Source: Blasia pusilla | Lineage: Eukaryota | Direction of reading: 5' to 3' | Assembly (NCBI GenBank): GCA_050084515.1 | Contig: CM114271.1 | Span: forward strand, 6,138,001-6,202,000 | DNA length: 64,000 nt | Shown here: positions 1 through 34,914 of the stretch, piece after piece | Position numbering within the stretch: the first letter of the stretch is position 1 | Layout: every line of letters starts with the position of its first letter | Notes under the pieces: generated by a model | What the model was told of the DNA's origin: nothing | The model's database searches: none | What the model saw: only the letters and a program-made list of their open reading frames with translations | Position numbers and translations under genes: made by a program

Positions 1-329
1 GCACTACTGTACTCTACCATCCTCCCACATGCGGAGAATATGTGTTCCCTCCAATCAATACCTCTTAGCACGTTGAAGAACACGGTCTCGCTCCTTGGCA
101 CTCACTATGCCTGGCACCCTACTGGTCCGTAGGAACTCCAACACTTACGCATCATCATGAATATCACGCTGATCCGTACCACCATCTCCAACCTTAGGAT
201 CTAAAGGTGGCCATCTACCCTCGACTAGAGTAAGATATCATGTGGTCCTCCATACTAGAGTCCACCCTAACCAACATAAAAGGCGGATGCATGCCAACCT
301 GGCACCATCTCCTCATCAACCTCGCCATG

Positions 330-1590
330 CCATCTAGCCCCGCTTGTATCCTCTTGGCTAGTACATGGGTTCCTACTCAACCCATCAAGATCAAGGTTGG
401 CAACCTGTGTCTATGTATCACCCGGAAGTCATACTCTGTAAGATAAGAGCCCACCGTGCAAGCTTCCCCGTAAGCTTGTCCGACTCCATCAACCACTTGA
501 GCGTGTGGTGATCGAGAATAACAAGGGTAAAGCGTGTGTGCCAAACAAGTAACACCTAAAGTGTGCCCACACCACACACCGCCAAGCACTCTCCCTCATA
601 TGAACTATAGCGCGACTCTGCATTATTCGAACGACTTGCATAGGCCACCACAAACTCCATGTGCTCATCATCATGTTGTGTCAACACCGCTCCAAGTCCC
701 AACCTAATCCAATCAGTGTGTAACTGAAATGGGCGCCCTTTGATAGGTCTCCTCAAGATAGGCGCCGCCACCAACTGGGCCTTAAGCTCCCCAAAAGCTC
801 TCTCTTGATCATCTCCCCAGTGCCACTCTTGATCTGATTTCAGCAATTGGTTTAAAGGCTTTGCCATAGCACTAAATCCCTTCACATACCTCCGATAGTA
901 GTTCGCCAACCCCATGAATGCTCGAACTCTACTCACATATACCGGACGTGGAATAAGTGCAATAGCCTCCACCTTTGCTTGCTGAACTCCCAAACCACCT
1001 GGATAGATCACATGACCCAAGTACTCAACATCCTCATGGAAGAACTTACACTTTCCTTGGATGCAACGTAGACCATGAGCTTTCAACCGCTCAAACACCA
1101 TCTGCAAATGTATCTGATGCTCCTCCACCGTGTTACTGAACACCAAGATATCATCAATGTAACACCGAACAAAATCCAACCCTGCTAGGATCCTGTCCAT
1201 CACTCTTTGAAACTCGGCAGGTGCATTCTTCAACCCAAAGGGTAAGAATTTCCACTGGTACAAACAATCCTTGCCATGAGAGTTGACACCCCAAAATGCT
1301 GTCTTGGCCTTGTCACTCTCCCGAATTGGCAATTGATGGTATCCTGCTCGAAGATCCAAAGTACTGAAAATCTTTGCCTGTCCCACCACATCAAAGATCT
1401 CCTCAAGTGTAGGCATGGCATACCTATCGGCCTTGGTTTGCCGATTGATAGGACGGTAATCTCCACACATCCGCCTATCCGTGTAGTTGCCATGCATATC
1501 CTTTTTAGCATGCATGACAGTGGCTGATGCATACTCTCAGCGACAACTCCACTAATCCAGCCTCCAAAAGGTCCAACGCCCCTACTCGAA
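330..1590 (-). pseudogene. Reverse transcriptase and RNase H of copy 1 (frameshifted)
   Basis: ORF 556..1515 contains DLRAGYHQ, LPFGLKNAPAEFQR, CYIDDILVFS, then LHTDW...LGAVL...VAYASR...RYSSYEGECLAV (RNase H). Confidence 0.95.
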
Positions 1591-2069
1591 TCAGGTCCCT
1601 CTCCATATCACTATATCGGTAGGGACGACGGAAGATTGGCGTATCACTAGCCAAATCAATCCGTATACCGGGTCCAACCTAAAACCCAACTCCTTCATGC
1701 TAAAGGCAAAACAACTCCTATAAGCACGTAGGAACCTGTGTCAGCGTCGTTTCTCACCTCACCTAAGCTTGGGCCCAAGTAATGGCTCCCAAGTCTCTCC
1801 CTTTGGCATACTAGAGGGAGAGGACGATGCCATTGGTCGCTACACAACCCCCTCACAAGATGATACACCCTTAGCTACACCATCATCGAGCAAATAACTC
1901 CTCCACCAAAGATGAGCAACCAACTCCACATGCCCAACCATTACATCCCATTTACTCCAAGGATGCAAAATACTACTCTCCTTGCCCTGACCGATGCCTC
2001 TACCGTCCCGGTAGCCATCGAGCTCATTACAGGGGTGGAAGACCCTGACATAGTCCAAGTCGACGCCGC

Positions 2070-2990
2070 TCGGCCATACCAAGACTCAAAATCCAAGTCA
2101 AACAATTCAGGTCCATGGCCTGACCCAACACATGACGCCGTGAAGCCTCGTAAATAGAAGCAACCGCCACGCTGAAGAGTAAATCCCATCGCACGCTCTC
2201 TCTCATCGCCGTTAGGCTCCACCAATCGCCGCACATGAGAATCCCATACAAGCCCGGACCACCTTCCTGTAGGCATGTGACGCGGGAAAACTCACAAATG
2301 TGGATAGTGCCATCCTAGGTCTGGCCCACACGATTCACCAACGCCATGGGTGACCGATCAATAACCCTCACCACTTGAGAAAGTCGCCCAAGATTCAAGA
2401 TACTATCCACGGTAAGGCGAGGATCGCCAGACCGCATCATATGCTCGACGTAGAACCTCCCCTAGGCAACAAGTTTGTCCACCACAAGCGTGGACGATGT
2501 GCACGTGAGCCAACTTCTTCGGCACGCATCCAACAACACCGCTAGTCCAATCCAAGACCGCACCTCATGAACACTCGCCATCATCCGGGTCCGAGTGTCA
2601 CCCAACAATGGAACATTCTCCGAATGTAAGCTAGAGCACGTGCTCGATGAACTGAAGATGTCGTAACACCCGTAACATCTCCCAAAACAATCGAGACCTA
2701 GGGTCATGTAATCCCTCACCACGACCAAAGACGTGTATGACCCACGACATGGCCATCCCTGCAATCACCAAATCCACAGGACCAACCCTCTCAAGGTCCT
2801 GCACCCCAACAATGCAATGTGTGATGGTAAAGCACTGGTACCCACGAATAGCGATGGCGGCAACAACTCGGATATCTCCGCATCAATCGACCAATATGTC
2901 GGGATGAGACTCTCTAGGCGTCTCATCTCGCTCCCACATACACGTATCTCCAAGACAGAATACCGCCTGCAACATCGCCGCCAAACCTGG
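2070..2990 (-). pseudogene. DNA cytosine-5 methyltransferase domain of copy 1 (motif I deleted, frameshifted)
   Basis: Frame-hopping translation of the minus strand gives DLERVGPVDLVIAGWPC (motif IV), GEGLHDPRSRLFWEM, ENVPLLGDT (motif VI), EPNGDERERAMGF (motif IX) and RRHVLGQAMDLNCLTWIL (motif X). Confidence 0.85.
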
Positions 2991-3959
2991 TCTATAAGAC
3001 GTCTCGATCCAATAATCCATATGAAAAACCCATCGGTACAATATCGCTCCTCCAACTAGTACATCATACGACTCGGCTGATGTGACTACGCAGATACTCC
3101 CAACCGGGAGCTATCGTCGCATGATCCTGGTCTCAAATCAGACAGAAAACTTCCCGTGTCATGAATTGAGACCTATCATTGGCTCCTCCAAGTGATGTTT
3201 GAATCGGAATGGGCAAGGCTCAAGCTCGACCTCCGAATACCCAAACCAATACATGCCGCCTTTCCCAACATCAAAGGTGGGCACCGAGTCTAACAAGACT
3301 CTATCTGGTCTATACACTGTCATGTAGGACTCACCAATCGGAAGATCCCCTCCGGTTGTCCAACATACATACACCAGGTGTAAGCCTCTCACGATTAATG
3401 GTGGCCGGTGGTAATGCATCCATCTTCGCCGCCTTTGCGCTAAGTAGCACGGGTACTCAATGCTACTCTCGACATAGAGGGTCGCTCCACCGCAACATCC
3501 TCATCCACCTCAACACGTGTAGCAAGAATAACACCCCACGTTCACACAATGTGGTCGCTAGCTGAAATCTGAAGCTAAGTCAACTCCTAAAGCCATCGCT
3601 CGTGGCAAAACGATGGGGATCCCAACACCGAAGTTGCCATCCGCATCATCTTGCCTTTGGATGCCGCATCCGTGTCTACTACACGCGATGTAGATGCCTC
3701 GATCCCCCTTTGTAGGCTCAATAGGCTCGCGAGGAACCATGGATGGAGTCCTAAGCACCTCAGACAAGAAGAATGACTGGGAAGCCTAGCTCGCCTCCCG
3801 GCCTCACCCCTCTGTGGGTCCAACTCACAAAGTAGCACCACGTGGCTCTGACGCTCGAGTGGCTCCTCTCGTAACTGCAGCTGATGCCTCAACCTAAGCT
3901 GCACTCGCCATATAAGAGAGATCATCCCCTCCATAAGAGGTTGAAGCCCCTGCTCCCGA

Positions 3960-5230
3960 ACCTGATCTATCTTTGGATACCACCATAGTAGCCAACTCTC
4001 GCTCCAATGCTCAATCCTGGCGACCATAGCGACTCTGTCGTAGTGGTAGGGGTAGCCACCGTAGGCTCTCCAACCACTCGTCCACCTCTACCACACCTAG
4101 CACCTCTACCACCTCGGCCTCTCGAAGCTACTCCATCACGGCCACGGTCTGATCTCAACTCTGGATGAAGATCAAAGCAACACTCTCGAGGATGACCTAG
4201 TCTCCCGCAATGATCACACTGAGTTGGGGCCGACTGAGGCCCATCCTCCAAATTCCGTCTCCCATCCTCTTGGGGAAAAAAATTCCTAACATGATCACCT
4301 CCACATGTCCAACATGACTGTCCTTGCTGCGGGGCTGCAAATGAAGGCAATGGTCTCTGCACAAATGTCCCTCTAGGACTTGATCGAGGTCGCGTGTACC
4401 CCCACGACTCCCCACTACTACTACCACCACCACCACTACGAGGCTGTGAGGTGGGCGGTGAACACGAAGTAGTAGTTGTATCCCCTCTTGAATGCGGATG
4501 TCACCACTCTCTCCTTCACCATGTTAAGCTCAATCTTCTCAGATAGAGCAAACACATGGGTCAATGTGGGTGAATCATCACTCATAAGAGTAGCATCACG
4601 TACTCTACGGCGCAAATCTCTGTCCAAGATCCCATACCAAAATTGACCGCTGATCCTCAGTCACACCCAGGTAATTGAAATCAAGCGTCGATACGCGCGT
4701 GTATGCCTCACGAAGACTCTCACCAGTCTTTCGCTCAAAGTCGTGAAGATTCCTCAACTTCTCCGTCTTCACTCCTTGATAGTTCTTCTTCAACCTCTTG
4801 AAGAACTGCAATCGGGCTAAACGATGGTGGGGCACTAGTACCTCCACTAGTACCCCCACTAGTACCTCCACTCCGGCTCGCACTGCACCACTCGCGTCAT
4901 TTGGGTGGCATAGTAGGAGCACTACTACCAATACCACCATGGGTGATAGACACATAGCCTGGAGACCAATATTGTCTCCATGCCTCAATCTCAACAACAT
5001 GGTCCTTCCTTAACTCATGGTAATCATCCATGGGTGGTCCTTCCAAGTCTTTGAAACAACCCCTTCCAAGCCAAGAAGGGTGTAAACAACGTGCGTTCGC
5101 AACATCTACATATCACACCACGTATCAAACTCTGTATGAAGTCCTCCAACTCAATGGTACCCATTTGCACCGAGTATTGTCGTGGGCCCTTCATGGCCCC
5201 ATATCCACCGTCCATGTCCCTAATCAATGG
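3960..5230 (-). pseudogene. gag of copy 1 with two CCHC-type zinc knuckles and an RGG tract
   Basis: CWTCGGDHVRNF and CDHCGRLGHPRECC followed by RGRGGRGARCGRGG; upstream gag-like text EKLRNLHDFERKTGESLREAYTR. Confidence 0.85.
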
Positions 5231-6895
5231 AGCCGCAACACTCGATAACAACGTAGAAGACTCGGTGTTTGGAACACCTCGTCCTCCTCTTCATCAACCG
5301 TCGGAAGTGGAAAAGGTAGCGATACCTAAATCCACTCCGTGTGAAACCACCACCATCCCGCACCACGGTCCCCAACCAGACCACCCGACTGACTCGTGAT
5401 GACCAACGCCGATGCCGCACCACCACCAAATTACCCAAGTGACGTCGATGTCGCTCTACTATTGTAGCTCTACTAGCTATGGGTGTAGGCAACCTAACCT
5501 CTCATCACCACAAGAAGACTCCCACGGTCTACTGGTCATCATTCCAGCCTCACTATCAGTAGCACACAGGAGTAACACTACTATGGAAATCAGCGTCAAC
5601 CCTAACAATGGGCGCGCAAGCAAGAAGCACAATGGAGGGGATCCAAACACAGGAAATCCAACGACAACCCTCCAATCTCAAATGGAAATCAAGGTAACAC
5701 AATCCACCAAACGTGGTGCCCTCTGAATCCACAAAACCCACCACACAATTCTAACGCAATAGCTACTCCGCCGCGGGTCGATGACGTGCTAGTCGAACTC
5801 GCAGCACCTGAAAATATCACCTGCATGGAGAGGCTACACCGTACTATGCGCTAGAGGTACATCAACCAAAAACCTGAGATGCATAAAGTGCCTAACACCT
5901 CTCCGAACAGCACCAAATGAGCTACAACGACAGACCTTTGGCATAGTTAAGAACTCAGCAGTTAAGCGTCCTCCAGGCAGAATAGCCCAAAGATGGGTGA
6001 CCAGTTATGCAAAACTCAAATCCTAAATCCTGCAAAAATTTCCTCACACCCAAGCAAGCAAGCTTGCTTGCTTGCTCCTTGCTCCTTACTCCGCCTCTCA
6101 CGCCCACTCGCCCCGAGTTGCCTCGAAGCCTCAAAACGCCGAGACATGCCCCGTTCGCCACGCTTCACGATGCTTCGCTATGGAGAGAGGTCCAACCAGG
6201 GCGCCCCCAATGGGATAGGCATCTCCAAAAATGAACGAGTCACCAACCAACCAGCCCCTCCGATCCGCTGTCCACCATAGCCAGACCTTGAGCTAGTCCG
6301 CAAAATTTCGATATGAAATTACTTCACAAATACGTGACCAAAATCAAATCTGTTTCGATCAGAATTCAATTGACCACCATAGCTATCTCCCCACAAAAAC
6401 TCAGCTACAACCGAGCTCCGTACTCCGAGCTAAAGATCAGACAAACTTGCTGTCCATACACCTCTAGAACCGCAAATCCGACAGCGCTTCCGCCAAGTTT
6501 CATGCACGCAGAAATCCGCAACGCTCCACGCACTCGAGCAGATAGCTTCACATGAGATCACAATACAAGTAGCAATAGGAACCTCTCACCCGATCTGGAT
6601 GAACTTCACAGAGCTTCCGCACTCCAAGCTCTCCACATCGTAAAACCGTCGAACACGAACAGAATCTTCAATGCTTGATAACTTCCAACTCCCTTGACGA
6701 AATCCGGCGATCTCGGTAGCGTTGGAAAGCTCTCGCAAGAAGGCGCTTCTTTCCTAACCAACCAGGTACCTGATTCACACCTCCAACATAGGCAACAAGC
6801 CGCGAACATCCACGGCTGAGTACACAATCGGCCCCTAACTGGATCCCTCTTGATCTACAATCGAAGCTACCATCGATCTACTCCAGTTCTTTGAG

Positions 6896-7261
6896 TGAAA
6901 TCCGTGAAAGACCTACTGTCATAAAACACGTTTACAATCACATACAGTCGAGCCAAACCCACTCCACGATGGGAGAATCTAGGTCGAAGCTTGCGGGAAA
7001 CACCATAGCCAAGAGCTCTACTCACTACCAAAGCTAACTCCCAACGCAACAGGCTCAACTCAAAGAACTGATTGTTCTTTGAGGGCAAGCCACCTTATAT
7101 CCTCCAACCTAAGAGCGGGCTCTCTTTGGGAAAGTCACCCCAAGTGAGTAACCCCCAACCCTATGTATGGAACCGCATCTCTACCAAGCCACTACGGTCC
7201 TACATAAGGAATGGCCTCTACCAGCACTATACTCTACGACATAATCCGTATGGTCATGACA
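6896..7261 (-). repeat. Terminal repeat A (LTR-like, ~366 bp) of copy 1
   Basis: Homologous to 25317-25684 and 33860-34225; reads TGTCATGACC...GGATTTCA on the minus strand. Confidence 0.9.
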
Positions 7262-9403
7262 AACATGTAATATATAAAAGTAGATATTGAAATGTGAATT
7301 TATGTGCTTTTGTGAATAGCTAAGTCCTAGATGCACATGCTAGCGGGGACCCAATACGTGATCGAGCATGCGCATTGGTAAAAGGAGGATCTATCTTTGC
7401 TAGAACACTAAGACAAAATCTAGATTAGCTATGTGTGAGTAAATTTTGTTGTGGGAATTAGCCTCTAGTGATATTGATGGACTTGTCAATACTTTTGGAA
7501 TATCCTTATTACAAGCTAGGCGTATTTGAACCCTCCTCCATTTTCTACTAATTCCTTCATGATCATAGGAGAAGCTAAGGCCACATGCACTAGACCAAGA
7601 TCTGTCAATCATTCTAAGGAGCAAAATTTTCCAACGATTTTTTTGGTAAGATATCATAGTAATTCTTTATATGATTGTGTGGTTAGGCCACTCATCTTAA
7701 AATGAGTATGAATTATATAAGTTACTGGTCTAAAAATTCTTAAATCATAACTAGACTTAGCTCTGGATAGTACCATATAGGTTTGTAAAACATGAAAGCA
7801 AATTTTAATGCAACAAGATATCTACCTCCTATCGTACAATCTTATTATTTTTGTGTTTTCATTGCATAACTTATCATGATGGAAAATGTGAGTTTAGCAT
7901 ATTCCCTACTCCTTTTGGTATGCAATACATCATACATAGATCTCTTGACCTCTGTCGTGCGCATACACATTACTACACAACATACATTGTTGTCAGCGAA
8001 CACACACACAAACACTCGGGATCTCATGATAACTCATGGCATGTAACCATCGAGACGAGAAGTGTGAAAATATCTCCAATTCGCGAACATGAGGTCGAAA
8101 TCCAATACCTAAAGCGGAACGGAGGAATGTGCGGGCGCCTCCTCACAATTGCCACAACCAAAATCGTGTCTATTTGCGGGTAGTAATGGCAGGAACACAG
8201 TAGCTACGGCAAACCGCGTCGAGAAATCATGGACGCCCTTGGCTCAACCTTTGGTAGCAATAGAAACAACCGTTGGGGGGGGGGGAGGCATTGTGAGAAG
8301 TTGCGTAATCCCTAAGGAGGCGCAAATAGTTCAAGCAGGTGACCTAAGGTTGAGGTTGTGGTAGTCGGTCGCGGCGGCAATGGCAGTCAGTAGCTATAGT
8401 TGTGGCAGCACGGCTTTCACTTACTAACTCAGTTGAGAGCGAAGTGGCAACGAGGCGTCTACGACAGCAACAAACACGCGTGTGGCAGAATGCCAATAAT
8501 TGGGGACGCAGTCGATAAGGGAAATGTAGTAGTAGCGAGGCTAATGGTGTTGGAAGCAAGTCTAGCATAGCTAAGGTCGGCGGCTGCAAGTGGCCATAAT
8601 TGGATGCAAAGTGGGCGGCATCAAAGCGGACCCCAACGCCCCCTCTCCTTTTCTCTTATTTTATCTTAAATAAAAATTTCCGTCCGGAGACTAGGTCTGT
8701 TCTATTTTGCTAAACTTGACTGCCCCTCTTTCTAAAATTATCCATGATTTGGATTTTTGCCCCAATAATCCTTGAATTCTAGGGTCAACATCCCGAAAGA
8801 AAAAATTTTAACTTCAATAGAAAATTTCCTTTGTCCGATTCCCTTAGATAAAATGATTTTCTACCTCTTACACAAGGAGTTACCAAAGGCAATTGGAAAT
8901 TTCACTCACACGGTGGCACGGTGGCTATGGCAGCCAACAACATTGGTCACAACTTCGTGCTTAGATGTTCAAATCATGCACCGTTTTCTAGCAATGTGCA
9001 CAACTTCCTGATCTACGACGACGTTCAATTGGTTTCTCCACTAGACCTTAAAAAAAACTGACAAGGAATGTCATGCAACCCTTCAATTTTCATTCCTACA
9101 TAAATTTTGACAACACTTCCGCGATGATGACTCCGAACGACAATTGCAAACCTATGAAAACTCAAAACTAGAGAGCTCTATGGTGCCCTTGAGAACACCA
9201 TTATGGAGCAGCCCACCCCCATACTCAATTCATACCAAAAAATTGGCAACGCTTCCTTGCACCACTCTCATGTACAAAAATACTGCAAAGAAATGACACC
9301 AAACGGATGGCTCTTGCTCCCTAAGCAGTCTCGTGAGCCATGAAGCGGGGAACACGGTCCCAACTTGCAAACACAGCGAGAAACCAACGAGGTCCTCTAT
9401 TGT

Positions 9404-9691
<288 letters not shown>

Positions 9692-9693
<2 letters not shown>

Positions 9694-21797: not shown

Positions 21798-22799
21798 TGT
21801 CGCGACCCTCATGAACAAACAAGTGCCAAGCGGAACATCGGAACATTAGCGGACTCACGCTAAGATGGTTTGCGCGTTGGAGTTGTCTCAAAGAGGAGAC
21901 AAGAGACGAGACGCGAGCGAGGAGTTGTGTTTCAGATGTTATGGTCGCGATTCAGAAACCTGGACCAAACGCGGAATGAGACTTGAAAGAAGTCGAGTCT
22001 AGGAAGTGGGTTGCCAAAGGAAAGATCCGGATTTGGAACGCCACTAGCGTTTGAGAGTTTCCGACTGTATTTATGGCCATAACTTTTAGCGCCAAGATGC
22101 GTTTGAAACGAATAAGGGTGCATTGGAAAGCTTATGGAGAGCCGGTTCAAACGCATCAAAGATCGCTGCAAACGCACAAGCAGCGGCCGAGATACAACCC
22201 GAAAACGATTGTAAGTGGAGTCGGGTTGAGGGCCACAATGAAGGGCCCGACCCTCTTTTCCCAAAGGGGAGGGGTTATTGGAGAACCCCAGAAGTACTAG
22301 TAAGGGGGTAGGTCTCCGAGAATGCTTGGAACCCAAACCCCACTTTGGGCGCTGCGGGGCGGCTCAAGGGTATGGAACGGAACGCGAGTTTGGACGTTGG
22401 GTTAGAAAACCTGCACCAAGTCCATTGAGGCGATTTTAGACATCCCTCTTGGATTTCACACCGCGACTCAATTACTTGGGTCTCGGTTCGGAACTCACCC
22501 GAGGACCGTTGAACAGTTGGGATCGCTAGGCGCGCAAGTGCCGTTTCAAATCCCTGGACTAACTAGGAAGTCTGTTCCAAGTCTTGAAGGACTTGCCATG
22601 TTATGGAAGCTAGGAACTAAGGAAGGTTAAGCTTGATGAGACGCCGAGTTGAGGACTCGGTGGGTTGGAACGCTGGTTGGCCAGACCCGACTAACGAGAG
22701 TGCGTGTTTGGGTGCAGATCGACGATGAGTTCGTGACCTACTGAACGTACGCTTCCGTAACACTAAAGATTGACGTTCAAGGAGAGTAGGGGCGCGACA
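21798..22799 (-). mobile_element. Solo LTR (~1 kb), family X, inverted relative to the other two copies
   Basis: TGTCGCGA...GCGCGACA termini; near-TSD gttag/gtttg; reverse-complement homology to 23716-24734 and 43802-44831. Confidence 0.8.
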
Positions 22800-23705: not shown

Positions 23706-25058
23706 CAAGGTTGCATGTTGCGCGCCTACTCTCCTTGAACGTAAATATTTAGTGTTTTGGAAGCGTGCGTTCAGTAGGACACGCTCCCAATCCTGATCTA
23801 CACCCAAACACGCACTCTCCTTGGTCGGATTTGGGTCAATCAACGTTCTAACTTTCTGAGTTCTCGACTCCGCCTCTCATCAAGCTCAACTTTTCTAGTT
23901 TCGCGGTTTACAACATAGGCAAGTCTTTCAAGACTAGGGATAGACTTTCTGGTTGGTTCCGGAACCTTGAAGGGCGTTTGTATGCCTGGCAGTCCCAATT
24001 GTCCTATGTACATCCAATGAGTTCCTAATCGCGACTCACAAAAATGAGGCGCGCGTTGGAATCCAAGAGTGGCTTAAGAAATCCACTCCCTTGGATTAGG
24101 TTCGGGTTTCGAGTTCCCACGCCAAACTCTCCTTCCATCCCGTGCCCTTGAGACGCCGTTTGGCGCTCAAAATGGGGTTCGGGTTCCAAGAATCCTTGGA
24201 GACTCTTCCCCTTTACTAGTACTTCTGGGGATCTCTGCCATCCCCCTAACTTTGGGGAAACACAATCAAGCCTCTCATTTTGGCCCTCAACCCGACTCCT
24301 CATACAGTCATTTTCGGCAAATATCTCAAGCTTTTCTTGAGCGTTTTCTGAGATTTTTGGTGCGTTGTAATTTTCTTTGCATTAGCTTTCCAACGCCACC
24401 TTATTTGTTCCAAACTCATCTTAGGAATAAACGTTATGGTCCAAAACACAATCAAAATCCCCAAACGCCAGTCGTGTTCCAAATCTGGTTCTCACATCTT
24501 TGGCAACCAACCTTCCTAGACTCAACTCATCTCAAGTCTTGGTTCACGTTCGATCCAGGTTTCTTGGCCTCGACCATAAAGGCATGAAACGTACAAACTC
24601 TATTGCATGTTTCGTCTCTTGGAATTTTCCAAGAGATCTCTCCACAACGCAATCATCGTAGCGTGAACTCACTAAAGGTCTGATGTTTTGCTTGGCATCT
24701 ATTTGGTGTTCGTTTGGTTATGAGGGTCGTGACATTGCATATGGATAAAATCCGTATTTGTGGATATGTCCATGTCCGTGGACTTACGTCCGTTCTATAG
24801 AAGGATTTGCCCATGTGGGCCCCATCTCCCCATTCTTTCTCATTCCTCCATTTACCTTTGTGATCCACACTTTCTCATTTCTTCTTTCTTCTATTACTAC
24901 TCCCTCCCCCCATATTGCCCCGCACGTCCTTGCCTTGCCTTCCACCGTGAACTATAAGTATGGGTCCCACCTTTTGCAATCCATGCTAGTAGACATGTCC
25001 AAACTTGTCCTTCCATGTCCGTCCTAGGGAGGAGCTTGTCCGTTTTTGTGCAACCATG
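23706..25058 (+). mobile_element. hAT-type MITE interrupted at its left TIR by a solo LTR
   Basis: TIRs caaggttgca / tgcaaccatg and a perfect 8-bp TSD CTTATTAT (23698-23705, 25059-25066). The body (24740-25058) is homologous to 47423-47735. Confidence 0.88.
23716..24734 (+). mobile_element. Solo LTR (~1 kb), family X
   Basis: TGTTGCGCG...GTCGTGACA with a perfect 5-bp TSD TTGCA (23711-23715, 24735-24739). Confidence 0.9.
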
Positions 25059-25316
25059 CTTATTATGTGGATCTCTTTCTCCTCTTGCTACTTTTCTAGT
25101 CAAATCAGGGTGCAATTTGATTTTGATTGAAAAGGTTGTAGAATGCAACTTGTTCTCTTGGACTTGCTTCACCATGAGATTGACTAGAGATGTAAACCAA
25201 ATTTCATGTCATCCTCAATCTCTCCACTTTGTGATAGTATTTTCTATTTTTCCCTCCCCAGGAAACGAATATCTAAAAAAATTGGATTGCATAGTGGTTT
25301 CTTGCTTTGTGAAGAG

Positions 25317-25684
25317 TGTCATGACCATACGGATTATGTCGTAGAGTATAGTGTGCTAGTAGAGGCCATTCCTTATGAAGGACCGTAGTGGCTTTGTAGA
25401 GATGCGGTTCCATACATAGAGTTGGGGGTTACTCAGTTGGGGGTGAGTTTCCCAGTAGGGCCCGCTCTTAGGTTGGAGGATATAAAGTGGAGTGCACTCA
25501 AAGAACAATCAGTTCTTTGAGTTGAGCCTGTTGCGTTGGGAGTTAGCCTTGGTAGTGAGTAGAGCTCTTGGCTATGGTGTTTCCCGCAAGCTTCGACCTA
25601 GATTCTCCCATCGTGGAGTGGGTTTGGCTCGATTGTATGTGATTGTATACGTGTTTTATGACAGTAGGTCTTTCACGGATTTCA
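25317..25684 (+). repeat. Terminal repeat A1
   Basis: Near-identical to 33860-34225. Confidence 0.93.
25481..25521 (+). promoter_or_regulatory. Putative TATA box and transcription start inside repeat A
   Basis: TATAAA at 25481 and a pyrimidine-purine start (TC|A) at 25511, 30 nt downstream. The spacing is the same in copy 1. Confidence 0.55.
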
Positions 25685-26619
25685 CTCGTGGTAACTCGAG
25701 GTAGCTCGGGGCGAGTGGGCGTGAGAGGCGGAGTAAGGAGCAAGGAGCAAGCAAGCAAGCTTGCTTACTTGGGCGTGAGGCAATTTTTGCAGGATTTGGG
25801 ATTTGAGTTTTGCATAATTGGTCACCCATCTTTGGGCTATTCTGCCTGGAGGACGCTTAACTGCTGAGTTCTTAACTATGCCAGTGTACACACTATTGTA
25901 GCTCATTTGGTGCTATTCGGAGATGTGTTAGGCACTTTATGCATCTCAGGTTTTTGGTTGATGTACCTCTAGCGCATAGTACGGTGTAGCCTCTCCATGC
26001 AGGTGATCTTTTCAGGTGCTGCGAGTTCGACTAGTACGTCATCGACCCGCGGCGGAGTAGCTATTGCGTTAGAATTATGTGGTGGGTTTTGTGGATTCAA
26101 GGGGCACCACGTTTGGTGGATTGTGTTACCTTGATTTCCATTTGCGATTGGAGGGTTGTCGTTGGACTTCCTGTGTTTGGATCCCCTCCATCGTGCTTCT
26201 TGCTTGCGCGGCCATTGTTAGGGTTGACGCTGATTTCCAGAGTAGTGTTACTCCTGTGTGCTACCGGTAGTGAGGCTGGAGGGATGACGAGTAGACCGTG
26301 GGAGACTTCTTGTGGTGATGACCAGTTAGGTTGCCTACACCCATAGCTAGTAGAGCTAGAATAGTATAGCGACATCGACGTCACTTGGTTATTTGGTGGT
26401 GGTAATTTGGTGGTGGTGCGGCATCGGCGTTGGTCATCACGGAGCTGTCGGGTGGTCTGGTTGGGGACCGTGGTGCGGACAATGGTGGTTTCACACGGAG
26501 TGGATTTAGGTATCGGCTACTTTTTCCACTTCCGACCGTTGATGAAGAGGAGGACGAGGGTGTTCCAAACACCGAGTCTTCTACGTTGTTATCGAGTGTT
26601 GCAGCTCCATTGATTTGGG

Positions 26620-27900
26620 ACATGGACGGTGGATATGGGGCCATGAAGGGCCCACGACGATACTCGAGTCAAAGTGGGCACCATTGAGTTGGAGGACTTC
26701 ATGCGGGAGTTTGATACGTGGTGTGATATGCGGATGTTATGAACGCCACGTTGTTTACACCCTTCTTGGCTTGGAAGGGTTGTTTCAAAGACTTGGAAGG
26801 ACCACCCATGGATGATTACCATGAGTTTAGGAAAGACCATGTTCTTTGAGATTGAGGCGTGGAGACAATATTGGTCTCGGGCTATGTATCTATCACCCAT
26901 GGTGGTATTGGTAGTAGTGCTCCTACTATGCCCGGCCCGGCCCGAGCGTTGAGTGGTACAGTACGAGCCGAGTGGGGGTACGGTGGAGGTACTAGTGGGG
27001 GTACTAGTGGAGGTACTAGTGCCCCACCATCGTTCAGCCCAGTTGCAGAGTTCTTCAAGAGGTTGAAGAAGAACTATCAAGGAGTGAAGACGGAGAAGTT
27101 GGGGAATCTTCAAGACTTTGAGCGAAAAGGCGGTGAGAGTCTTCGTGAGGCATACACGCAGCGTATGCACGCTTGATTTCAGTTACCCAGGGTGTGAGTG
27201 AGGATCAGGCAGTCCAGTTTTGGTATGGGATCTTGGACAGAGATTTGCGCCGTAGGGTACGTGATGCTACTCTTATGAGTGATGATTCATCCACATTGAC
27301 CCATGTGTTTGCTCTATCTGAGAAGATTGAGCTTAACATGGTGAAGGAGAGAGTGGTGACATCCGCATTCAGTAGGGATACAACTACTACTTCTCGTGTT
27401 CAGCTGCCCACCTCACAGTCTTGTAGTAGTGGTGGTGGTAGTAGTAGTGGGAGTCGTGGGGGGTACACACGACCTCAGTCAAGTCCTAGAGGGATATTTG
27501 CACAGAGACCATTGCCTTCATTTGCTGCCCCGCAGCAAGGACTGTCATGTTGGACATGTGGAGGTGATCATGTTAGGAATTTTTGTCCCCAAGAGGATGG
27601 GAGACGGACTTTGGAGGATGGGCCTCAGTCGGCCCCAACTCAGTGTGATCATTGCGGGAGACTAGGTCATCCTTGAGAGCGTTGCTTTGATCTTCATCCA
27701 GAGTTGAGATCAGGCCGTGGCCGTGGTGGAGTAGCTCCGAGAGGCCGAGGTGGTAGAGGTGGTAGGGGTGGTAGAGGGGGACTAGTGGTTGGAGAGCCTA
27801 CGGTGGCTACCCCTACCACTACGACAGAGTCGACTATGGTCGCCGAGGATTGAGCAGATTGGAGCGAAGTTGGCTACTATGGTGGTATCCAACATAGATC
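26620..27900 (+). pseudogene. gag of copy 2 (two zinc knuckles, RGG tract; frameshifted)
   Basis: CWTCGGDHVRNFCP, CDHCGRLGHP*ERCF, then GRGRGGVAPRGRGGRGGRGGRGG. Confidence 0.85.
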
Positions 27901-28479
27901 AGTTCGGGAGCAGGGCTTCCACCTCTTATGGAGGGATGATCTCTCTTATATGGCGAGTGCAAAGACAAAAGTTAAGGCATCACAGGTGCGATTCTGAGAG
28001 GAGCCACTCGAGCGTCGAGCCACGTGGTGCTCTTGTGGAGTTGGACCCACAGAGGGGTGAGGCCGGGAGGCGTGCTAGGCTTCCCTGGGTCATTCTTGTT
28101 GTCTGAGGAGTCGAGGACTCCATCCATGGTTCCCGCAGCCTATTGAGCCGCGGTGGGGATCGAGGCATCTACATCGGCGTATAGTAGACACGGATGCAAA
28201 GCATCCAATGCGATTGTGCGGATGGCAACTTCGGTGTTGGGATCCCCATTATTTTCGCCACGGAGCGATGGCTTTAGGAGTTGACTTAGCTCTGTATTTG
28301 ATTTAGCGACCACGTTGTGTGAACGTGGGGTATTTATTGCTACACGTGTTGAGGTGGATGAGGGTGTTGCGGTGGAGCGACCCTCTATGTAAGGTGTAGC
28401 ATTGAGTACCAGTGCTACTTGGCGGCAAAGAACGGCGAAGATGGATGCATTACCGGCCCGGCCAGCCATTGATCGTGAG

Positions 28480-28900
28480 AGGCTTACACTGGTGTATGTA
28501 TGTTGGACAACCGGAGTGGGATCTTCCGATTGGTGAGCCCTACAGACAGTGTATAGACCGGATAGAGTCTTGTTAGACTCTAGTGCCCAACCTTTGATGT
28601 TGGGAAAGGCTGCATGTATTGGTTTGGGTATTCGGAGGTCAGAGCTTGAGCCTTGCCCATTCCAGATTCAAACATCACTTGGAGGAGCCAATGATAGGTC
28701 TCAATTCATGACACGGGAGAAGTTTTTCATGAGTTAAGACCAGATCATGCGATTGATAGCTCCCGGTTGGGAGTATCTGCGGTAGTCACATCGGCCGAGT
28801 CGTATGATGTACTAGTTGGAGGAGCAAAGATGTGTACCCGATGGGTTTTCAGATGGATTCTTGGGTGAGACAACGTCTTATAGACCTGGTTGGAAGTCGG
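28480..28900 (+). pseudogene. Retropepsin-type aspartic protease
   Basis: RVLLDSSAQPLMLG (D-S/T-G-like active site) and downstream YDVLVGG. Confidence 0.75.
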
Positions 28901-29289
28901 GGATGGACGTATGAGCCAAGTTCCTGTGAGATTTATTTTTGGGGCTCGACCAGGAGGGTCTTCCCCAACAATGTTAGCATCTGTGGCTGGTTTTAGTGGA
29001 GTAGTCACTTGGCCAGGAGACTTTTGGAGGGTAATGTTTTCGCTATGGATTCTCCTGCATGCATGAGGAGGTAGAGGAGGTCCCTATTTTTGCAGCAGTG
29101 GCATCCTCATCGTTGGATGTGCCACTTTGGAGTTTAGGCGGTGCACTACGGCAGAGGCGTCGCCTAGTGCAGAGAGGAGGCTTGGTGTGAGGTTATACCT
29201 CACGAGGAAGAGGAGGCCCCACGGCGGACTCCTACTTCTGGTCGATTAGGTTATCCCCTTTGGATACTACACCCATTGTATGGTAGTAT

Positions 29290-30240
29290 CCGCCGGAGGG
29301 CATTTGTCTCATTAGATCTCTTTGGTGGGATTAGCTGGTTTGGCTGCAGTGTTGCAGCCGATATTCTGTCTTGGAGATACGTGTATGTGGAGCGAGATGA
29401 GACGGCCCAGAGTCTCATCCCGACATATTGGTCGATTGATGCGGAGATATCTGAGTTGTTGTCGCCATCGGCTATTCGTGGGTACCAGCGTGTTTTTACC
29501 ATCACACATTGCATTGTTGGGCGCGGGACCTTGAGAGGTTGGTCTGTGGATTTGGTGATTCTTTGGATGGCCATGTCGGGTCATACACGTCTTTGGTCGT
29601 GGTGAGGGATTACATGACCCTAGGTCTCGATTGTTTTGGGAGATGTTACGGATGTTACGACATCTTTAGGTTCATCAGCACGTGCTCTAGCTTACATTCG
29701 AGAATGTTCCATTGTTGGGTGACACTCGGACCGGATGATGGCGAGTGTTCATGAGGTGCGGTCTTGGATTGGACCAGCGGTGTTGTTGGATGCTGGCGCG
29801 AGTTGGCTCGCGTGCACATCGCCCACGCTTGTGGTGGACAAACTTGTTGCCTAGGGAGGTTCTCGTCGAGCATATGATGCAAGGCGGGATCCTCGCTTAC
29901 ACGGTGGATAGTATCTTGATCTTTGGCGACTTTCTCAAGTGGTGAGGGTTATTGATCGGTCACCCATGGCGTGGTGAACCGTGTGGGCCAGACCTAGGAT
30001 GGGACTACCCACATTTGTGAGTTTTCCTCGTCACATGCCTACTGTGAGGAAGGTGGTCCGGGGCTTGTATGGGATTCTCATGTGCGGCAGTTGGTGGAGC
30101 CTAACGCTGATGAGAGAGCGCGTGCGATGGGATTTGCTCTTCGTGTGACGGTTGCTTCTATTTTCTGAGGCTTCACGACGTCATGTGTTGGGTCGGGCCA
30201 TGGACCTGAATTGTTTGACTTGGATTTTGAGTCTTGGTAT
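29290..30240 (+). pseudogene. DNA cytosine-5 methyltransferase domain (DNMT3-like) inside pol, frameshifted
   Basis: Motifs in canonical order: DLFGGIS (29315, I), YVYVERDE (II), VDLVI-GWPC (29546-29576, IV), GEGLHDPRSRLFWEM (V), ENVP (29700, VI), LLDAxRVGSRAHRPRLWWTNL (VII-VIII, ~29790-29846), EPNADERARAMGF (IX), RRHVLGRAMD (X). Confidence 0.9.
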
Positions 30241-30689
30241 GGCCGAGCTGCGTCGACTTCGGACTATGTCTGTGGGTCTTCCACCCCTTGTAATGAGCTC
30301 GATGGCTACCGGGACGGTAGAGGCATCGGCTGGGGGCGAGGAGAGTAGTATTTTGCATCCTTGGAGTAAATGGGATGTAATGGGTGGACATGTGGAGTTG
30401 GTTGCTCATCTTTGGTGGAGGAGTTATTTGCTCGGATGATGGTGTAGCTAAGGGTGTACCATCTTGTGAGGGGGTTGCGTAGTGACCAATGGCATAAATC
30501 CTCTCCCTCTAGTGTGCAAGTGGAGGAGACTTGGGAGCCATTACTTGGGCCCAAGCTTACGGGAGGTGAGAAATGACGCTTGACATAGTTCCTACGTGCT
30601 TATAGGAGTTGTTTTGCCTTTAGCATGAAGGAGTTGGGTTTTCTGGTTGGACCCGGTATACGGATTGATTTGGCTAGTGATACGCCAAT

Positions 30690-31960
30690 CTTCCGTCGTC
30701 CCTACCGATATAGTGATATGGAGAGGGACCTGATTGAGTAGGACGTTGGACCTTTTGGAGGCTGGATTAGTGGAGTTGTCGCATGGAGAGTATGCATCGC
30801 CCATCTGTCATGCTGCTAAAAGGATATGCATGGCAACTACACGGATAGGCGGATGTGTGGAGATTACCGCCCTATCAATCGGCAAACCAAGTCCGATATG
30901 TATGCCATGCCTACACGAGAGATCTTTGATGTGGTGGGGACAGGCAAAGATTTTCAGTTTTTGATCTTGGCGGGATACCATCAATTGCCGATTCGGGAGA
31001 GTGACAAGGCCAAGACAAAGCATTTTCGGTGTCAACTCTCATGGCAAGGATTGTTTGTACCGGTGGAAATTCTTACCCTTTGGGTTGAAGAATGCACTGC
31101 CGAGTTTCAAAGAGTGATGGGCGGGATCCTAGCAGGGTTGGATTTTGTTCGGTGTTACATTGATGATATCTTGGTGTTCAGTAACACGGTGGAGGAGCAT
31201 CAAATACATTTGCAGATGGTGTTTGAGCGGTTGAAAGCTCATGGTCTACGTTTGCATCCAGGAAAGTGTAAGTTCTTCCATGAGGATGTTGAGTACTTGG
31301 GTCATGTGATCTATCCAGGTGGTTTGGGAGTTCAGCAAGCAAAGGTGGAGGCTATTGCACTTATTCCACGTTCGGTATATGTGAGTAGAGTTCGAGCATT
31401 CATGGGATTGGCGAACTACTATCGGAGGTATGCGAAGGGATTTAGTGCTATGGCAAAGCCTTTGAACCAATTGCTGAAATCAGATCAAGAGTGGCACTGG
31501 GGAGATGATCAGGAGAGAGCTTTTGGGGAGCTTAAGGCCCAGTTGGTGGCGGTGCCTATCTTGAGGAGACCTATCGAGGCGCCCATTTCATTACACACTC
31601 GATTGGAGTAGGTTGGGACTTGGAGCGGTGTTGACACAACATGATGATGAGCACATGGAGTTTGTGGTGGCCTATGCAAGTCGTTCGAATAATGCAAATG
31701 AGTCGCGCTATAGTTCATATGAGGGAGAGTGCTTGGCAAGAGTGTGGGTGTGGCATACTTTAGGTGTTACTTGTTTGGCACCCAGTTTACCCTTGTTACT
31801 GATCACCAACCGCTCAAGTGGTTGATGGAGTCTGACAAGCTTATAGGGAAGCTTGCACGGTGGGCTCTTATCTTACATGAGTATGACTTCCAGGTGGTAC
31901 ATAGACCTGGAGTTGCCAACCTTGATGCTGATGGGTTGAGTAGGAACCCATGTACTAGCC
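30690..31960 (+). pseudogene. Reverse transcriptase and RNase H of copy 2
   Basis: DRRMCGDYRPIN, CYIDDILVFS, GKCKFF...VEYLGH, LGAVL...VAYASR, FTLVTDHQPLKWL, ARWAL...ANLDADGLSR. Confidence 0.95.
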
Positions 31961-32339
31961 AAGAGGATACAACTGGGGCTAGATGGCATGGCGAGGTTGA
32001 TGAGGAGATGGTGCCAGGTTGGCATGCATCCGCCTTTTTATGTTGGTTAGGGATGGACTCTAGTATGGAGGACCACATGATATCTTACTCTAGTCAGAGG
32101 GTAGATGGCCAGCCTTCAGATCCTAAGGTTGGAGATGGTGGTACGGATCAGCGTGATATTCATGATGATGCGTTGGTGTTGGAGTTCCTACGGACCAGTA
32201 GGGTGCCAGGCATAGTGAGTGCCAAGGAGCGAGACCGTGTTCTTCAACGTGCTAAGAGGTATCGATTGGAGGGAACACATATTCTCTGCGTGTGGGAGGA
32301 TGGTAGAGTACGAGTAGTGCCACATTTGGCTCGAGAGAG

Positions 32340-33200
32340 GCGCATTGTGCGACATGCCCATGAGGAGTTGGGACATTTTGGGGTAAAGCGACGTATAGCT
32401 TACTCCTTGGCGATATTGGTGGCGTGGCATGCATACTCAGGTGCAGCAATTGGTGTCACGTTGTATGGTTTGTGATCGGGTGAGGGCATCATTTAATGCC
32501 CCTACACCACAATTACACCCCTTGCCTATTATGGGGTTGGGTTACCGTTGGAGTGTGGACTTTGCGGGACCGTTACCTGGTTGGTATGCGACATCATCGA
32601 TATGTGTTGGTGATGGTGGAGCACTTCTCCAAGTGGATTGAGTTGGTGGCATTACCGGACAAGGCAAGTGAGGAACGGCGTATGCGTTTGGATAGAGTGC
32701 TTAGTCATTTTGGTGCATCGGTGAAGTCTTGACCGACCAGGGTCTGAGTTTGTGGTGAGTTTGGTCTTGTGTGACAAGGCGTTGATTGATCATCGGACCA
32801 CATCTCGAGATCATCCAGAGGCGGATGGTTTGGCTGAGCGTGTGGTTCAGGACGGTGAAGAGGGCATTGCGCAAGTATGGCCTCTGAAGGCATCTTGGAG
32901 ACGGGATGTTCGGTTGCCATGGTTAGCCATGGGGTATAGGTTGATCGCCAAGCATCCTTGGCTTCCTTCTCACCTTATTTTTTGTTATATGGCGAGATCC
33001 GGACTTTTGCAAAGCAATTGTCGGGAGTCTAGTGAGGTGGTGAACCTTGATGACCTAGAGATGTGGATGAGGGTGTGTTCTCAGCGGGCGGAGCTCTTTC
33101 GGAGAGTTATGCCAACAACCTTTGAGAATCTTGCCATTGCTCAACACAGGGATACGTTGCGGTATGCAACCATTCGAGGTGGAGGTTATTGACCATCGAT
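32340..33200 (+). pseudogene. DDE integrase (HHCC plus core)
   Basis: HAHEELGHFG...CMVC (HHCC), RWSVDFAGP, VEHFSKWIE, LTDQG, TTSRDHPEADGLAER. Confidence 0.9.
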
Positions 33201-33439
33201 TCGTAGGTTCCATGTGGGGGACTATGTCTATTTGCAGCAGATTGCACCGACAACGTTGGATGTGACGGCAGGCCGCACTATTTTACGAGTGCGCGAGGTG
33301 TTAGCTTCTGGAGTTCTCTTGTTGGAGGGTCGTGATGGAGTTGTTTGGAAGGACCATGTGCGTAATTGTGCGCCATGTCATCTTCCAAATGTGGATGGTA
33401 GTGTTGACCCAAGCTTAGCCATGATACGTGCTAGCTTGA

Positions 33440-33582
33440 GGTGCATGTTGTGTGGGTCTACTGGTAACGCAGCCCGTATGTTGGTGTGTGATGGGTGTTC
33501 TAGGGGTTGGCACATGATGTGTTTGACTCCACGTTTGGATGTTGTTCCTACTGGAAGGTGGGTTTGTCTTCGATGTACTTAG
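33440..33582 (+). other. PHD finger (C4HC3) at the integrase C-terminus
   Basis: CMLCGSTGNAARMLVCDGCSRGWHMMCLTPRLDVVPTGRWVCLRC* matches canonical PHD spacing, including the W-x-C-x-x-C end. Confidence 0.92.
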
Positions 33583-33748
33583 GAGAGGTAGATGACTTGA
33601 TCTTTGCATGATATGGATTACAGATGTGCGACTAACGATGGGGCAACCTATCACCCGACCTTTTCGATTCGGGCACCCAAGAAGGTGTATAGCATGTAGT
33701 AGATGTATAGGGCTACCGGGAGTTAGAGGACCTAACCGCCGCTTGATT

Positions 33749-33758
33749 AGGGGGCGAG
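33749..33758 (+). promoter_or_regulatory. Putative polypurine tract
   Basis: AGGGGGCGAG immediately before repeat B1 (TTGTGGTACAC). Confidence 0.6.
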
Positions 33759-33857
33759 TTGTGGTACACTTGCGTTTGTGGATACTCGTCTATGTTATGT
33801 ACGTATGTGAGTATGGTATGTCGATGTATGTTGTATGACGACGTGGATTCGCACGAC
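33758..33857 (+). repeat. Repeat B1 (~100 bp)
   Basis: Near-identical to 34226-34331. Confidence 0.92.
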
Positions 33858-33859
33858 GG

Positions 33860-34225
33860 TATCATGACCATACGGATTATGTCGTAGAGTATAGTGTGCT
33901 AGTAGAGGCCATTCCTTATGTAGGACCGTAGTGGCTTTGTAGAGATGCGGTTCCATACATAGGATTGGGGGTTACTCAGTTGGGGGTGAGTTTCCCAGTA
34001 GGGCCCGCTCTTAGGTTGGAGGATATAAGGTGGAGTGCACTCAAAGAAACGATCAGTTCTTTGAGTTGAGCCTGTTATGCGTTGGGAGTTAGCCTTGGTA
34101 GTGAGTAGAGCTCTTGGCTATGGTGTTTCCAAGCCGACCTAGATTCTCCCATCGTGGAGTGGGTTTGGCTCGATTGTATGTGATTGTATACGTGTTTTAT
34201 GACAGTAGGTCTTTCACGGATTTCA
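33860..34225 (+). repeat. Repeat A2
   Basis: Near-identical to 25317-25684. Confidence 0.93.
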
Positions 34226-34331
34226 GTTGTGGTACACTTGCGTTTGTGGATACTCTCGTCTATGTTATGTACATATGTGAGTATGGTATGTCAGCGATGT
34301 ATGTTGTATGACGATGTGGATTCGCACGACA
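34226..34331 (+). repeat. Repeat B2 (right terminus of the element)
   Basis: gttgtggtacacttgcgtttgtgga...gattcgcacgaca followed by agag. Confidence 0.92.
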
Positions 34332-34914
34332 AGAGCTTCTATATTTAATATGCATTTTTTCGAAAGTTAGAAAAAAATTAACCAAAGGAGCAATGTAAAA
34401 AATTGAACTATTACTATGAATTGAGTTTTCAAAATTCCCAATAAGTAATACTACGTGGATGACACGAGTTTTGTACTAGTTTTTATTTATGTCAATAAGA
34501 ACATGTAAGGGAAATTAAGAATAATTAAATTATTTATTTACTTTTATTAAAAACTTATCTTAGTAATACTATTATTTTTTAATGTAGAATTTAAAAGAAC
34601 CTCTTGTAAACAAGTTCCCTTGCTCTAATTTTAGAAGAATAAAACCATTGACTTGCCTTATCAAAAGATCGAAAATAAAAATAGGACCATAATCCATTTG
34701 GCCGCCGTTTAAAATCCTAATGAGCTGAAATAAGCACGAAAGACTCATGTATTCAGAGTATAGTATTCCGTCTAATGTTTACAACTTCAGTTATTTCCGG
34801 GCCCATCGGAGGCTAGGAGCGTCCACTCCCGACACACTAGTATAAAACCATAAACTAAGCGCAGAAATAAGTCTTCGCGGAGTACATATACTCTGAGCTG
34901 TTGAGGGGTTTCGT

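Follow-up and report, generated by a model that had tools for sequence, protein, structure and literature searches.

Retrotransposons bearing long terminal repeats (LTRs), as well as retroviruses, are taught as integrating linear DNA, with the ends of their LTRs serving as the ends of the inserted copy. A stretch of 64,000 nt from Blasia pusilla (assembly GCA_050084515.1, contig CM114271.1, positions 6,138,001 to 6,202,000 of the forward strand; hereafter the window) raises the question of how an element equipped with a DDE integrase can come to lie in a chromosome in a different arrangement. At positions 25317-34331 of this window a repeat, A, stands alone at the 5' end of such an element, and the 3' end carries a second repeat, B, followed by another copy of A and another copy of B (A...B-A-B). 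The element is a Ty3/gypsy-type retrotransposon with a DDE integrase, from a streptophyte clade in which the repeat used in reverse transcription and the sites recognized by the integrase stand out of register; it is a new, liverwort-type member of a kind of element that is known but scarcely described. Specifically, the priming sites of the clade define a repeat composed of B+A, while the integrase ends and target-site duplications define the unit A...B. Coordinates given below are those of the window, on its plus strand unless stated otherwise.

Repeat anatomy of the window copies and their relatives

The element is bounded by a 4-bp target-site duplication, AGAG, at 25313..25316 on the left (...gtgaAGAG, then TGTCATGACC) and at 34332..34335 on the right (...GCACGACA, then AGAGcttc). 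The first repeat, A1 (25317..25684), opens with the integrase end TGTCATG, and its last base is the end of U5, the unique 5' region of the reverse-transcription repeat; no B is found at the 5' end of the element. At the opposite end, the polypurine tract AGGGGGCGA (33749..33757) abuts B1 (33758..33857), which forms the first part of U3, the unique 3' region, and ends with the integrase end ...CACGAC(A). Between B1 and the second copy of A, A2 (33860..34225), lies a decayed head-to-head join that resembles an integrase attachment (att) site, CACGAC-GG-TATCATG (33852..33866), and the last base of A2 is directly adjoined by the second copy of B, B2 (34226..34331), which carries the right integrase end ...CACGACA. 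The two copies of A are 97-100% identical by segment (357/371 alignment columns), as are the two copies of B (97-100%; 98/106 columns). Repeat comparison thereby bore out the repeat coordinates, the outer ends TGTCATG and CACGACA and the lack of a 5' B that had been put forward in the initial annotation of this DNA; of the two flanking duplications offered there, AGAG stands as a 4-bp duplication and the 5-bp version, AAGAG, does not.

A second copy of the same family, ~95% identical, occupies positions 1..7263 on the minus strand and is cut by the start of the window (copy 1; the element at 25317-34331 is copy 2). Its A (6896-7263) begins at the same base as that of copy 2, after an unrelated flank (ttacatgtt, then TGTCATGACC), and has no adjoining B. 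Copy 1 keeps its full leader (6127-6892) and, on the minus strand, an intact primer site at 6895-6884 (CTCAAAGAACTG). In copy 2 some 760 bp of leader directly after A are missing, and of the primer site just 3 nt, CTC (25685..25687), are left. A short repeat, TCGTGGTAAC / TCGAGGTAGC, is present at the break of this leader deletion (25685, against 6127-6892 of copy 1).

The same layout recurs among relatives of the window element. Eighty related loci, denoted by the letter L and a number, were chosen from metagenome contigs with a pol alignment; each was compared with itself and with the A and B of five reference elements, and contigs sharing identical right flanks were merged into one locus. 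Complete A...B-A-B elements are found at L015, L016, L043 and L063, in addition to the window copy, and further unique B-A-B 3' ends at L044, L047, L056, L058, L068, L072 and L074, such that 11 independent B-A-B ends exist besides that of the window, or 12 unique ends when the window is included. A locus of another family, L049 (the same as L051), shows only a B..B pair and, if counted, would make 12 beyond the window. Among 13 unique 5' ends, of which two come from the window and 11 are metagenomic, not one has B before A or the order A-B-A, and neither BA...BA nor plain A...A pairs, the ordinary arrangements that would have spoken for a single rearranged copy, were encountered in these families among the 80 loci. 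Two loci, L053 and L057, contain repeat pairs of ordinary appearance; these were not counted, as they lie too near pol or are 73-78% identical, and they contain neither A nor B. Together these data show that the A...B-A-B layout is not a one-off and support its being programmed, in agreement with the programmed left boundary initially proposed from the shared starting base of copy 1.

Contigs assembled from other sequencing runs add to this picture. In three of them (X3, X5 and X6, representing three coded organisms) the end of B (34331) is joined to the start of A (25317) with GC between, among the joints listed. By a crude measure of contig depth, values do not exceed 10 in the right flank bin, whereas within the element they reach tens, thousands or tens of thousands, and depth in the left flank bin is raised in two runs (581 in X1 and 91 in X6). 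The family is abundant in its host, its summed contig depth exceeding that of the right flank bin, by the same crude measure, by factors from tens to thousands in the two covering runs.

A further observation concerns the terminal TG of A, whose G is replaced by A (TATCATG) in four unique copies: A2 of the window element (33860), of L015 (14487) and of L074 (2080), and A1 of L016 (1766). The change lies opposite a C in CAG context, and it may have arisen when a cytosine methylated at a CHG site was deaminated.

In addition to A...B-A-B, the clade contains a second form, in which a single B is followed directly by flanking DNA (A-internal-B). This form is found at 17 unique loci, of which four (L002, L021, L042 and L048) are complete elements without any terminal repeats and 13 are further unique loci; it is as common as A...B-A-B. 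A sensitive repeat search detected no hidden terminal repeats in the loci without a B..B pair. The alignment of L002 to L043, an element with the A...B-A-B layout, begins at A1 and breaks off where B ends. The two forms are intermingled in a tree built from the final 1.5 kb ahead of B (8 changes, versus a shuffle mean of 7.2-7.3), and their terminal branch lengths show no difference (medians 0.059 and 0.076, p=0.38); the single-B form is therefore not a separate lineage. Assembly collapse could lie behind some of these loci, yet the same assemblies resolve B-A-B elsewhere. The initial annotation had not foreseen this form.

Priming sites, integrase ends and the register between them

Two kinds of boundary can be read from these repeats. 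Firstly, of 29 unique loci, 28 have a run of G no more than 3 nt from the base at which the first B opens, and the 29th carries AAAGGGG; as a polypurine tract abuts B, the plus strand therefore starts at B. The minus-strand primer, in turn, is probably a self-priming site of the Tf1 type directly after A, which would pair with the presumed 5' end of the RNA. The 12 nt that follow A in copy 1 (CTCAAAGAACTG) form a perfect complement of positions 194-205 of A (CAGTTCTTTGAG; 25510-25521 in A1 of copy 2), a sequence starting 29 nt past the TATA box (25481-25487 in A1), where the transcript is expected to start; none of 500 shuffles produced a pairing as good. The best complement lies 28-36 nt past the TATA box in seven of the 12 copies with an A1, with no more than 6 of 300 shuffles as good. 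Moreover, the paired sequences differ by family (CAGTTCTTTGAG/CTCAAAGAACTG versus AGTTTTTCTAGAA/TTCTAGAAAAACT), the pairing being kept while both sides change. Inspection by eye of the bases after A revealed no primer site of the tRNA type, no dedicated tRNA search having been made. With a polypurine tract before B and a primer site after A, the repeat of reverse transcription is therefore B+A, as had been suggested for this element at the outset.

Secondly, the outer boundaries of the integrated copies are those of a DDE integrase. In an alignment of 14 relatives, the integrase residues H1074, H1079, C1109, C1112, D1142 and D1202 are invariant, and E1237, 35 residues past the second D, is at least 90% conserved. 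A tyrosine recombinase domain (PF00589) is listed for none of 101 homologues, and Pfam searches found no such enzyme in five intact relatives, in 10 selected open segments of the window copy or in 10 searched out of the 16 open segments of 90 aa or more that overlap L043; the DDE integrase of the initial annotation is upheld. The termini themselves, TGTCATG... and ...CAYGAYA, form an inverted repeat of 7-9 bp. Target-site duplications of 4 bp match at all four positions in the window (AGAG), L016 (TCTC), L043 (CCAA), L021 (TGTG), L042 (TTTT) and L048 (CATC), at three of four in L063 and L015, and at one of four in L002. Perfect duplications are thus present in six of nine complete elements, including three of the four complete A-internal-B elements, and when the comparison is shifted by an offset at most one perfect match is obtained.

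The two termini also meet inside the element. The B1-A2 join consists of both termini placed head to head, CAYGAYA-NN-TGTCATG, with a 2-nt spacer, and in other copies of the window family it reads CACGACA-GC-TGTCATG. Sixteen loci fit a search pattern that left room for 1-3 nt between the two halves; the match is the B-A join with a spacer of exactly 2 nt in 15 of them (GC in seven, AT in three, GT in three, and AC and CT), and the sixteenth match sits 1.3 kb beyond the B of its locus. The order of polypurine tract, B, join and A is found in further families as well (L003, L011 and L038). In L040, a GC-rich element 36% identical in pol, a related palindrome, GCGACA-GC-TGTCGC, was seen by eye and was not listed by the palindrome scan. 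That scan was stringent (8-nt arms with at most one mismatch), missing most true joins since their arms differ at two positions, and it returned three sites in 46,586 nt of tails versus one in 195,682 nt of pol. A head-to-head, att-like site between B and A, as the initial annotation envisaged, is accordingly a regular feature of these elements, and it is here that the integrase would cleave.

Taken together, the clade displays most features of Ty3/gypsy elements, namely TG...CA termini, a 4-5 bp duplication, an integrase with HHCC and DDE motifs, and a primer site and polypurine tract. What it does not display are paired, identical LTRs that are each bounded by integrase ends; the ends lie instead inside the repeat that extends from the polypurine tract to the primer site. 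With the two frames out of register, what is integrated is a circularly permuted version of the reverse-transcription product.

The A2-B2 join is the third junction to be explained, and it consists of the last base before the primer site placed against the first base after the polypurine tract. The join is exact in seven of the 12 unique B-A-B ends (the window, L015, L043, L044, L068, L072 and L074). L047 lacks 1 nt at the join and L056 and L063 each lack 2 nt, L016 has 17 extra nt at this point, and L058 is too diverged for alignment here. Since such a junction occurs in no RNA or cDNA of the canonical scheme, the U5 end must therefore be joined to the start of U3. The small variation in length would fit fresh joining over copying, and the join may also be inherited within sublineages. 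This junction, CA-GT-TG in the window, had initially been taken for that of a circle; it does place the end of U5 against the start of U3, but it is not itself an inverted, att-like site.

A proposed joined intermediate and its rivals

The explanation that we favor, with modest confidence, links three events: self-primed reverse transcription, joining of U5 to U3, and opening of the internal site by the integrase. The minus strand would be primed at the Tf1-like site after A and the plus strand would start from the first base of B, such that canonical reverse transcription would yield B-A-internal-B-A. The U5 end of this product would next be joined to the start of U3, whether as part of a two-LTR circle or through closure of the same molecule by end joining. 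By nicking after CA on each strand, 2 bp apart, the integrase could then obtain both of its processed ends from one site, with 2-nt 5' overhangs. Were the internal site of the 5' repeat opened in this manner, A-internal-B-A-B would be inserted with a 4-bp duplication. This form would be the sole one able to give terminally redundant RNA, with the promoter and the R (repeated) region in A1 and R again in A2, and B2 would be needed only as the carrier of the right-hand integrase end. A joined U5-U3 intermediate, whether a two-LTR circle or its equivalent, would fit all of the anatomy described above. A broader proposal, in which the whole clade passes through an obligatory, U5-U3-joined two-LTR circle that the DDE integrase opens at a built-in palindromic att site, with A-internal-B arising from the same reaction on one-LTR circles, is more tentative, and we place it somewhat short of an even chance.

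Several observations weigh against this explanation. Because a circle has two identical internal sites, the mirror form A-B-A-internal-B is expected equally often, yet no such element was seen against five complete A-internal-B-A-B elements, an outcome with a chance of about 1 in 32. The joined intermediate, and the circle in particular, is read here from the anatomy of integrated copies in contigs, and metagenome contigs may carry collapsed repeats; contigs that overlap circularly do occur among the relatives, the ends of L040 being identical over 127 bp and L075 and L076 being rotations of each other. The A-internal-B form, present at 17 unique loci, has an origin that is ambiguous between three routes, as it may stem from deletion between B1 and B2 after insertion, from a one-LTR circle or from the internal half-sites on linear DNA. 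Pairing at the primer site is not significant in five of 12 copies (L007, L016, L019, L021 and L051). Finally, the window copy itself is dead, with many stops, a primer site that is mostly deleted and an internal site that has decayed. As for the overlapping contigs L040 and L075/L076, they were considered as evidence of circles and rejected, since assemblers collapse repeats in just that way.

Of the rivals to the joined intermediate, one dispenses with the circle. Here the substrate would be linear B-A-internal-B-A, of which the integrase would cut the left repeat at its internal site and integrate both new ends, after which host end joining would close U5 to U3; in a variant, reverse transcriptase would switch from the U5 end to the U3 start and so create a tandem repeat on linear DNA. 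The products and junctions would be identical to those of the circle, and the sequence offers nothing to separate the two models. Small variation in length at the A2-B2 join fits end joining, and A-internal-B would follow simply if, on linear DNA, the integrase used the half-sites lying inside both repeats. However, the problem of symmetry is the same, as a right-hand cut would give A-B-A-internal-B, which was not seen, and repair of a chromosome break would be required at each insertion. We regard such a route as unlikely. One locus bears on the matter: on the minus strand of L079 (8039-7572) a second element ends with polypurine tract, B, join and A at about the last base of A, without B2, and is followed by 316 bp of unrelated DNA and then by the truncated B of a tail-to-tail neighbor. 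Ending as it does at the U5 end, this copy resembles the end of a linear cDNA, and it is either such a captured end or a rearrangement, the two being equally likely.

A second rival holds that the elements replicate in the style of DIRS, PAT and Ngaro, an integrase having replaced the recombinase. The RNA would begin within A1 and end either within B2 or past it, the B1-A2 join would serve, like the internal complementary region of DIRS, as an internal template that bridges the ends of the cDNA into a circle with A-internal-B-A-B, and the DDE integrase would open the restored B2-A1 join. In its favor, the repeat layout is that of PAT/Ngaro elements (as drawn in the legends of PMC7192593, Fig. 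1, and PMC5890265, Fig. 4c), and the sequence of the B1-A2 join is that of the two termini put together, as an internal template would be. Such a model has no use, however, for a polypurine tract placed exactly at the start of B (28 of 29 loci) or for a self-priming site placed exactly at the end of A. The A2-B2 join, for its part, equals the exact sum of the priming boundaries, with variants of -1, -2 and +17 nt at that point, which looks like new joining and not like copying. Furthermore, A1/A2 and B1/B2 diverge in step in the five complete elements (A 84-98% and B 87-97% identical), as expected if both pairs are equalized in each cycle. DIRS-style replication is thus quite improbable.

Lastly, an ordinary Gypsy element with A+B or B+A pairs that had been rearranged once, had integrated into itself or had been misassembled might be suspected from a window with a single complete copy, a short B2 (106 bp) and decayed sequence, but this reading has next to no probability and is refuted by the 11 further independent B-A-B ends (12 with L049) in diverged relatives with different flanks and duplications of their own, by the identical starting base of copy 1 and the 0 of 13 unique 5' ends with B before A, by the B-end/A-start join that contigs from three further runs, each of a different coded organism, contain, and by the same layout reported in the Fig. 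4c legend for Klebsormidium (PMC5890265).

Coding content, surroundings and known systems

Between its repeats the window copy retains a recognizable, albeit broken, set of coding regions, all on the plus strand, with 173, 107 and 114 stops in the three forward frames. A Pfam profile search of 10 selected open segments identified, in order, RVT_1 (2.7e-16), RT_RNaseH (2.9e-12), a weak match to rve (0.0063) and PHD (1.4e-10). The order of reverse transcriptase, RNase H and integrase, with an RNase H of the Ty3/gypsy type, is shared by the window copy and five intact relatives; the latter display in full zf-CCHC, an aspartic protease, DNA_methylase, RVT_1, RNase H, Integrase_H2C2, rve and, in some, PHD. 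Near the left end, a broken gag-like open segment (27149..27676) contains motifs resembling zinc knuckles (CDHCGRLGH, by eye in translation); it has no Pfam match, and relatives carry zf-CCHC. Reverse transcriptase and RNase H of the Ty3/gypsy type occupy 30520..32050, as judged from Pfam and from homologues. The frameshifted integrase, with its zinc-binding region and DDE core (32399..33192), is recognized by the weak rve match and by tblastn matches to the integrase parts of the related proteins P0006, P0008 and P0026. The C-terminal PHD finger (33193..33582) gave the PHD match cited above, and a PHD finger at this position is common to many relatives.

The best matches of the reverse transcriptase segment are to proteins of Marchantia (73% identity) and Calypogeia (69%), followed by those of the charophytes Closterium, Klebsormidium and Chara together with many metagenome proteins; identity to the Klebsormidium proteins P0033 and P0057 is 35-43%. 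Several homologues of this segment are listed with PF00145, the cytosine-5 DNA methyltransferase domain. In the window, a decayed region upstream of the reverse transcriptase (28204..30237) is putatively related to these methyltransferases: by tblastn (matches P0001, P0009, P0026, P0037 and P0042) it is homologous to the N-terminal part of PF00145-bearing proteins of Marchantia, and also to PF00145-bearing proteins of Closterium and of metagenomes, the decayed copy itself being without a Pfam match. Among its Marchantia homologues are Mp_2g26090 and MARPO_0091s0058. Given homologues with the methyltransferase domain in both Marchantia and Closterium, Gypsy elements carrying a DNA methyltransferase therefore exist in liverworts as well as in charophytes.

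Other features of the window lie outside the two copies. Direct repeats at 23716-24543 and 43802-44629, with a further one at 22063-22799, are 80-85% identical; they stand 20,086 bp apart, bracket copy 2 and have inverted partners nearby, and they may represent an older repeat family or a segmental duplication. A long dinucleotide microsatellite, translated as THTH..., is found at 9344-9883, and at 54184-54401 two 109-bp units, 91% identical, stand in tandem. Long open segments at 36963-37622 and 56466-62605 on the minus strand and at 17020-18789 on the plus strand resemble exons of host genes, one of them being similar, by eye, to aldose 1-epimerase.

The displaced register has consequences both practical and conceptual. 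Software that finds LTR elements by their paired repeats will miss A...B-A-B elements or misplace their bounds, and A-internal-B copies will be missed entirely. For retroviruses, a route via circles with two tandem LTRs was at one time put forward and subsequently abandoned. Should the joined intermediate be real, this clade uses that very route. Under the broader proposal of an obligatory circle, what is a dead-end by-product in retroviruses would lie on the main pathway.

Among described elements, the closest in kind is KnitGypsy-Dnmt3 of Klebsormidium nitens, which the legend of Fig. 4c of de Mendoza et al. (2018; PMC5890265) presents with the repeats of DIRS elements and the domains of Gypsy elements, that legend giving no mechanism. 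KnitGypsy-Dnmt3 combines a Gypsy-type pol enclosing a cytosine DNA methyltransferase with a DIRS-like repeat layout; the window element shares this layout and has a putative counterpart of the methyltransferase in its decayed region. It differs in its host, the best matches of the window element being in Marchantia and Calypogeia, and in that the window element has a C-terminal PHD finger. Beyond the 2018 legend, no prior account of the termini, duplications, priming sites or mechanism was found in the literature that could be searched, which excluded most subscription journals. The layout is accordingly less novel than the initial annotation assumed: it was right that A...B-A-B resembles PAT/Ngaro and departs from the standard Gypsy layout, but the arrangement had already been printed for a Gypsy element (PMC5890265, Fig. 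4c legend). The mechanism is not accounted for in the literature found.

PAT and Ngaro elements have split direct repeats in the order A1...B1-A2-B2 (PMC7192593, Fig. 1 legend). The window clade shares with them, as drawn in that figure, both the DIRS order of repeats and an internal B1-A2 join in which the junction of the two termini recurs. Unlike PAT and Ngaro, which encode a tyrosine recombinase, it has a DDE integrase, TG...CA termini and 4-bp duplications. To our knowledge, PAT/Ngaro elements make no target duplication, and TOC1 of Chlamydomonas has a layout similar to theirs. A joined intermediate may explain how Gypsy-type and tyrosine-recombinase elements reached the same A...B-A-B layout.

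In its priming, the clade is closer to Tf1/Sushi and the plant element Tcn1, self-priming members of Ty3/gypsy (PMC6317226). As in those elements, a tRNA-type primer site was not seen and the sequence just after the repeat complements the presumed first bases of the transcript. Unlike those elements, which have ordinary paired LTRs and chromodomains, the window clade has permuted repeats and a PHD finger.

A final parallel is offered by retroviral circles, in whose junction palindrome 4 nt separate CA from TG. Retroviral integrases can cleave this palindromic LTR-LTR junction of two-LTR circles, as reported for HIV-1 (PMC1905944) and for foamy virus (PMC1180852). The likeness to the cleavage recounted there lies in the head-to-head CA...TG palindrome, the retroviral type of integrase and the internal cut. 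The difference is that a retroviral palindrome is confined to the junction of the circle and is a side route at most, whereas here it is present inside every repeat copy, with 2 nt between its halves. With an internal palindrome in every repeat copy of the clade, the genomic layout itself implies that this site is the normal substrate of the integrase.

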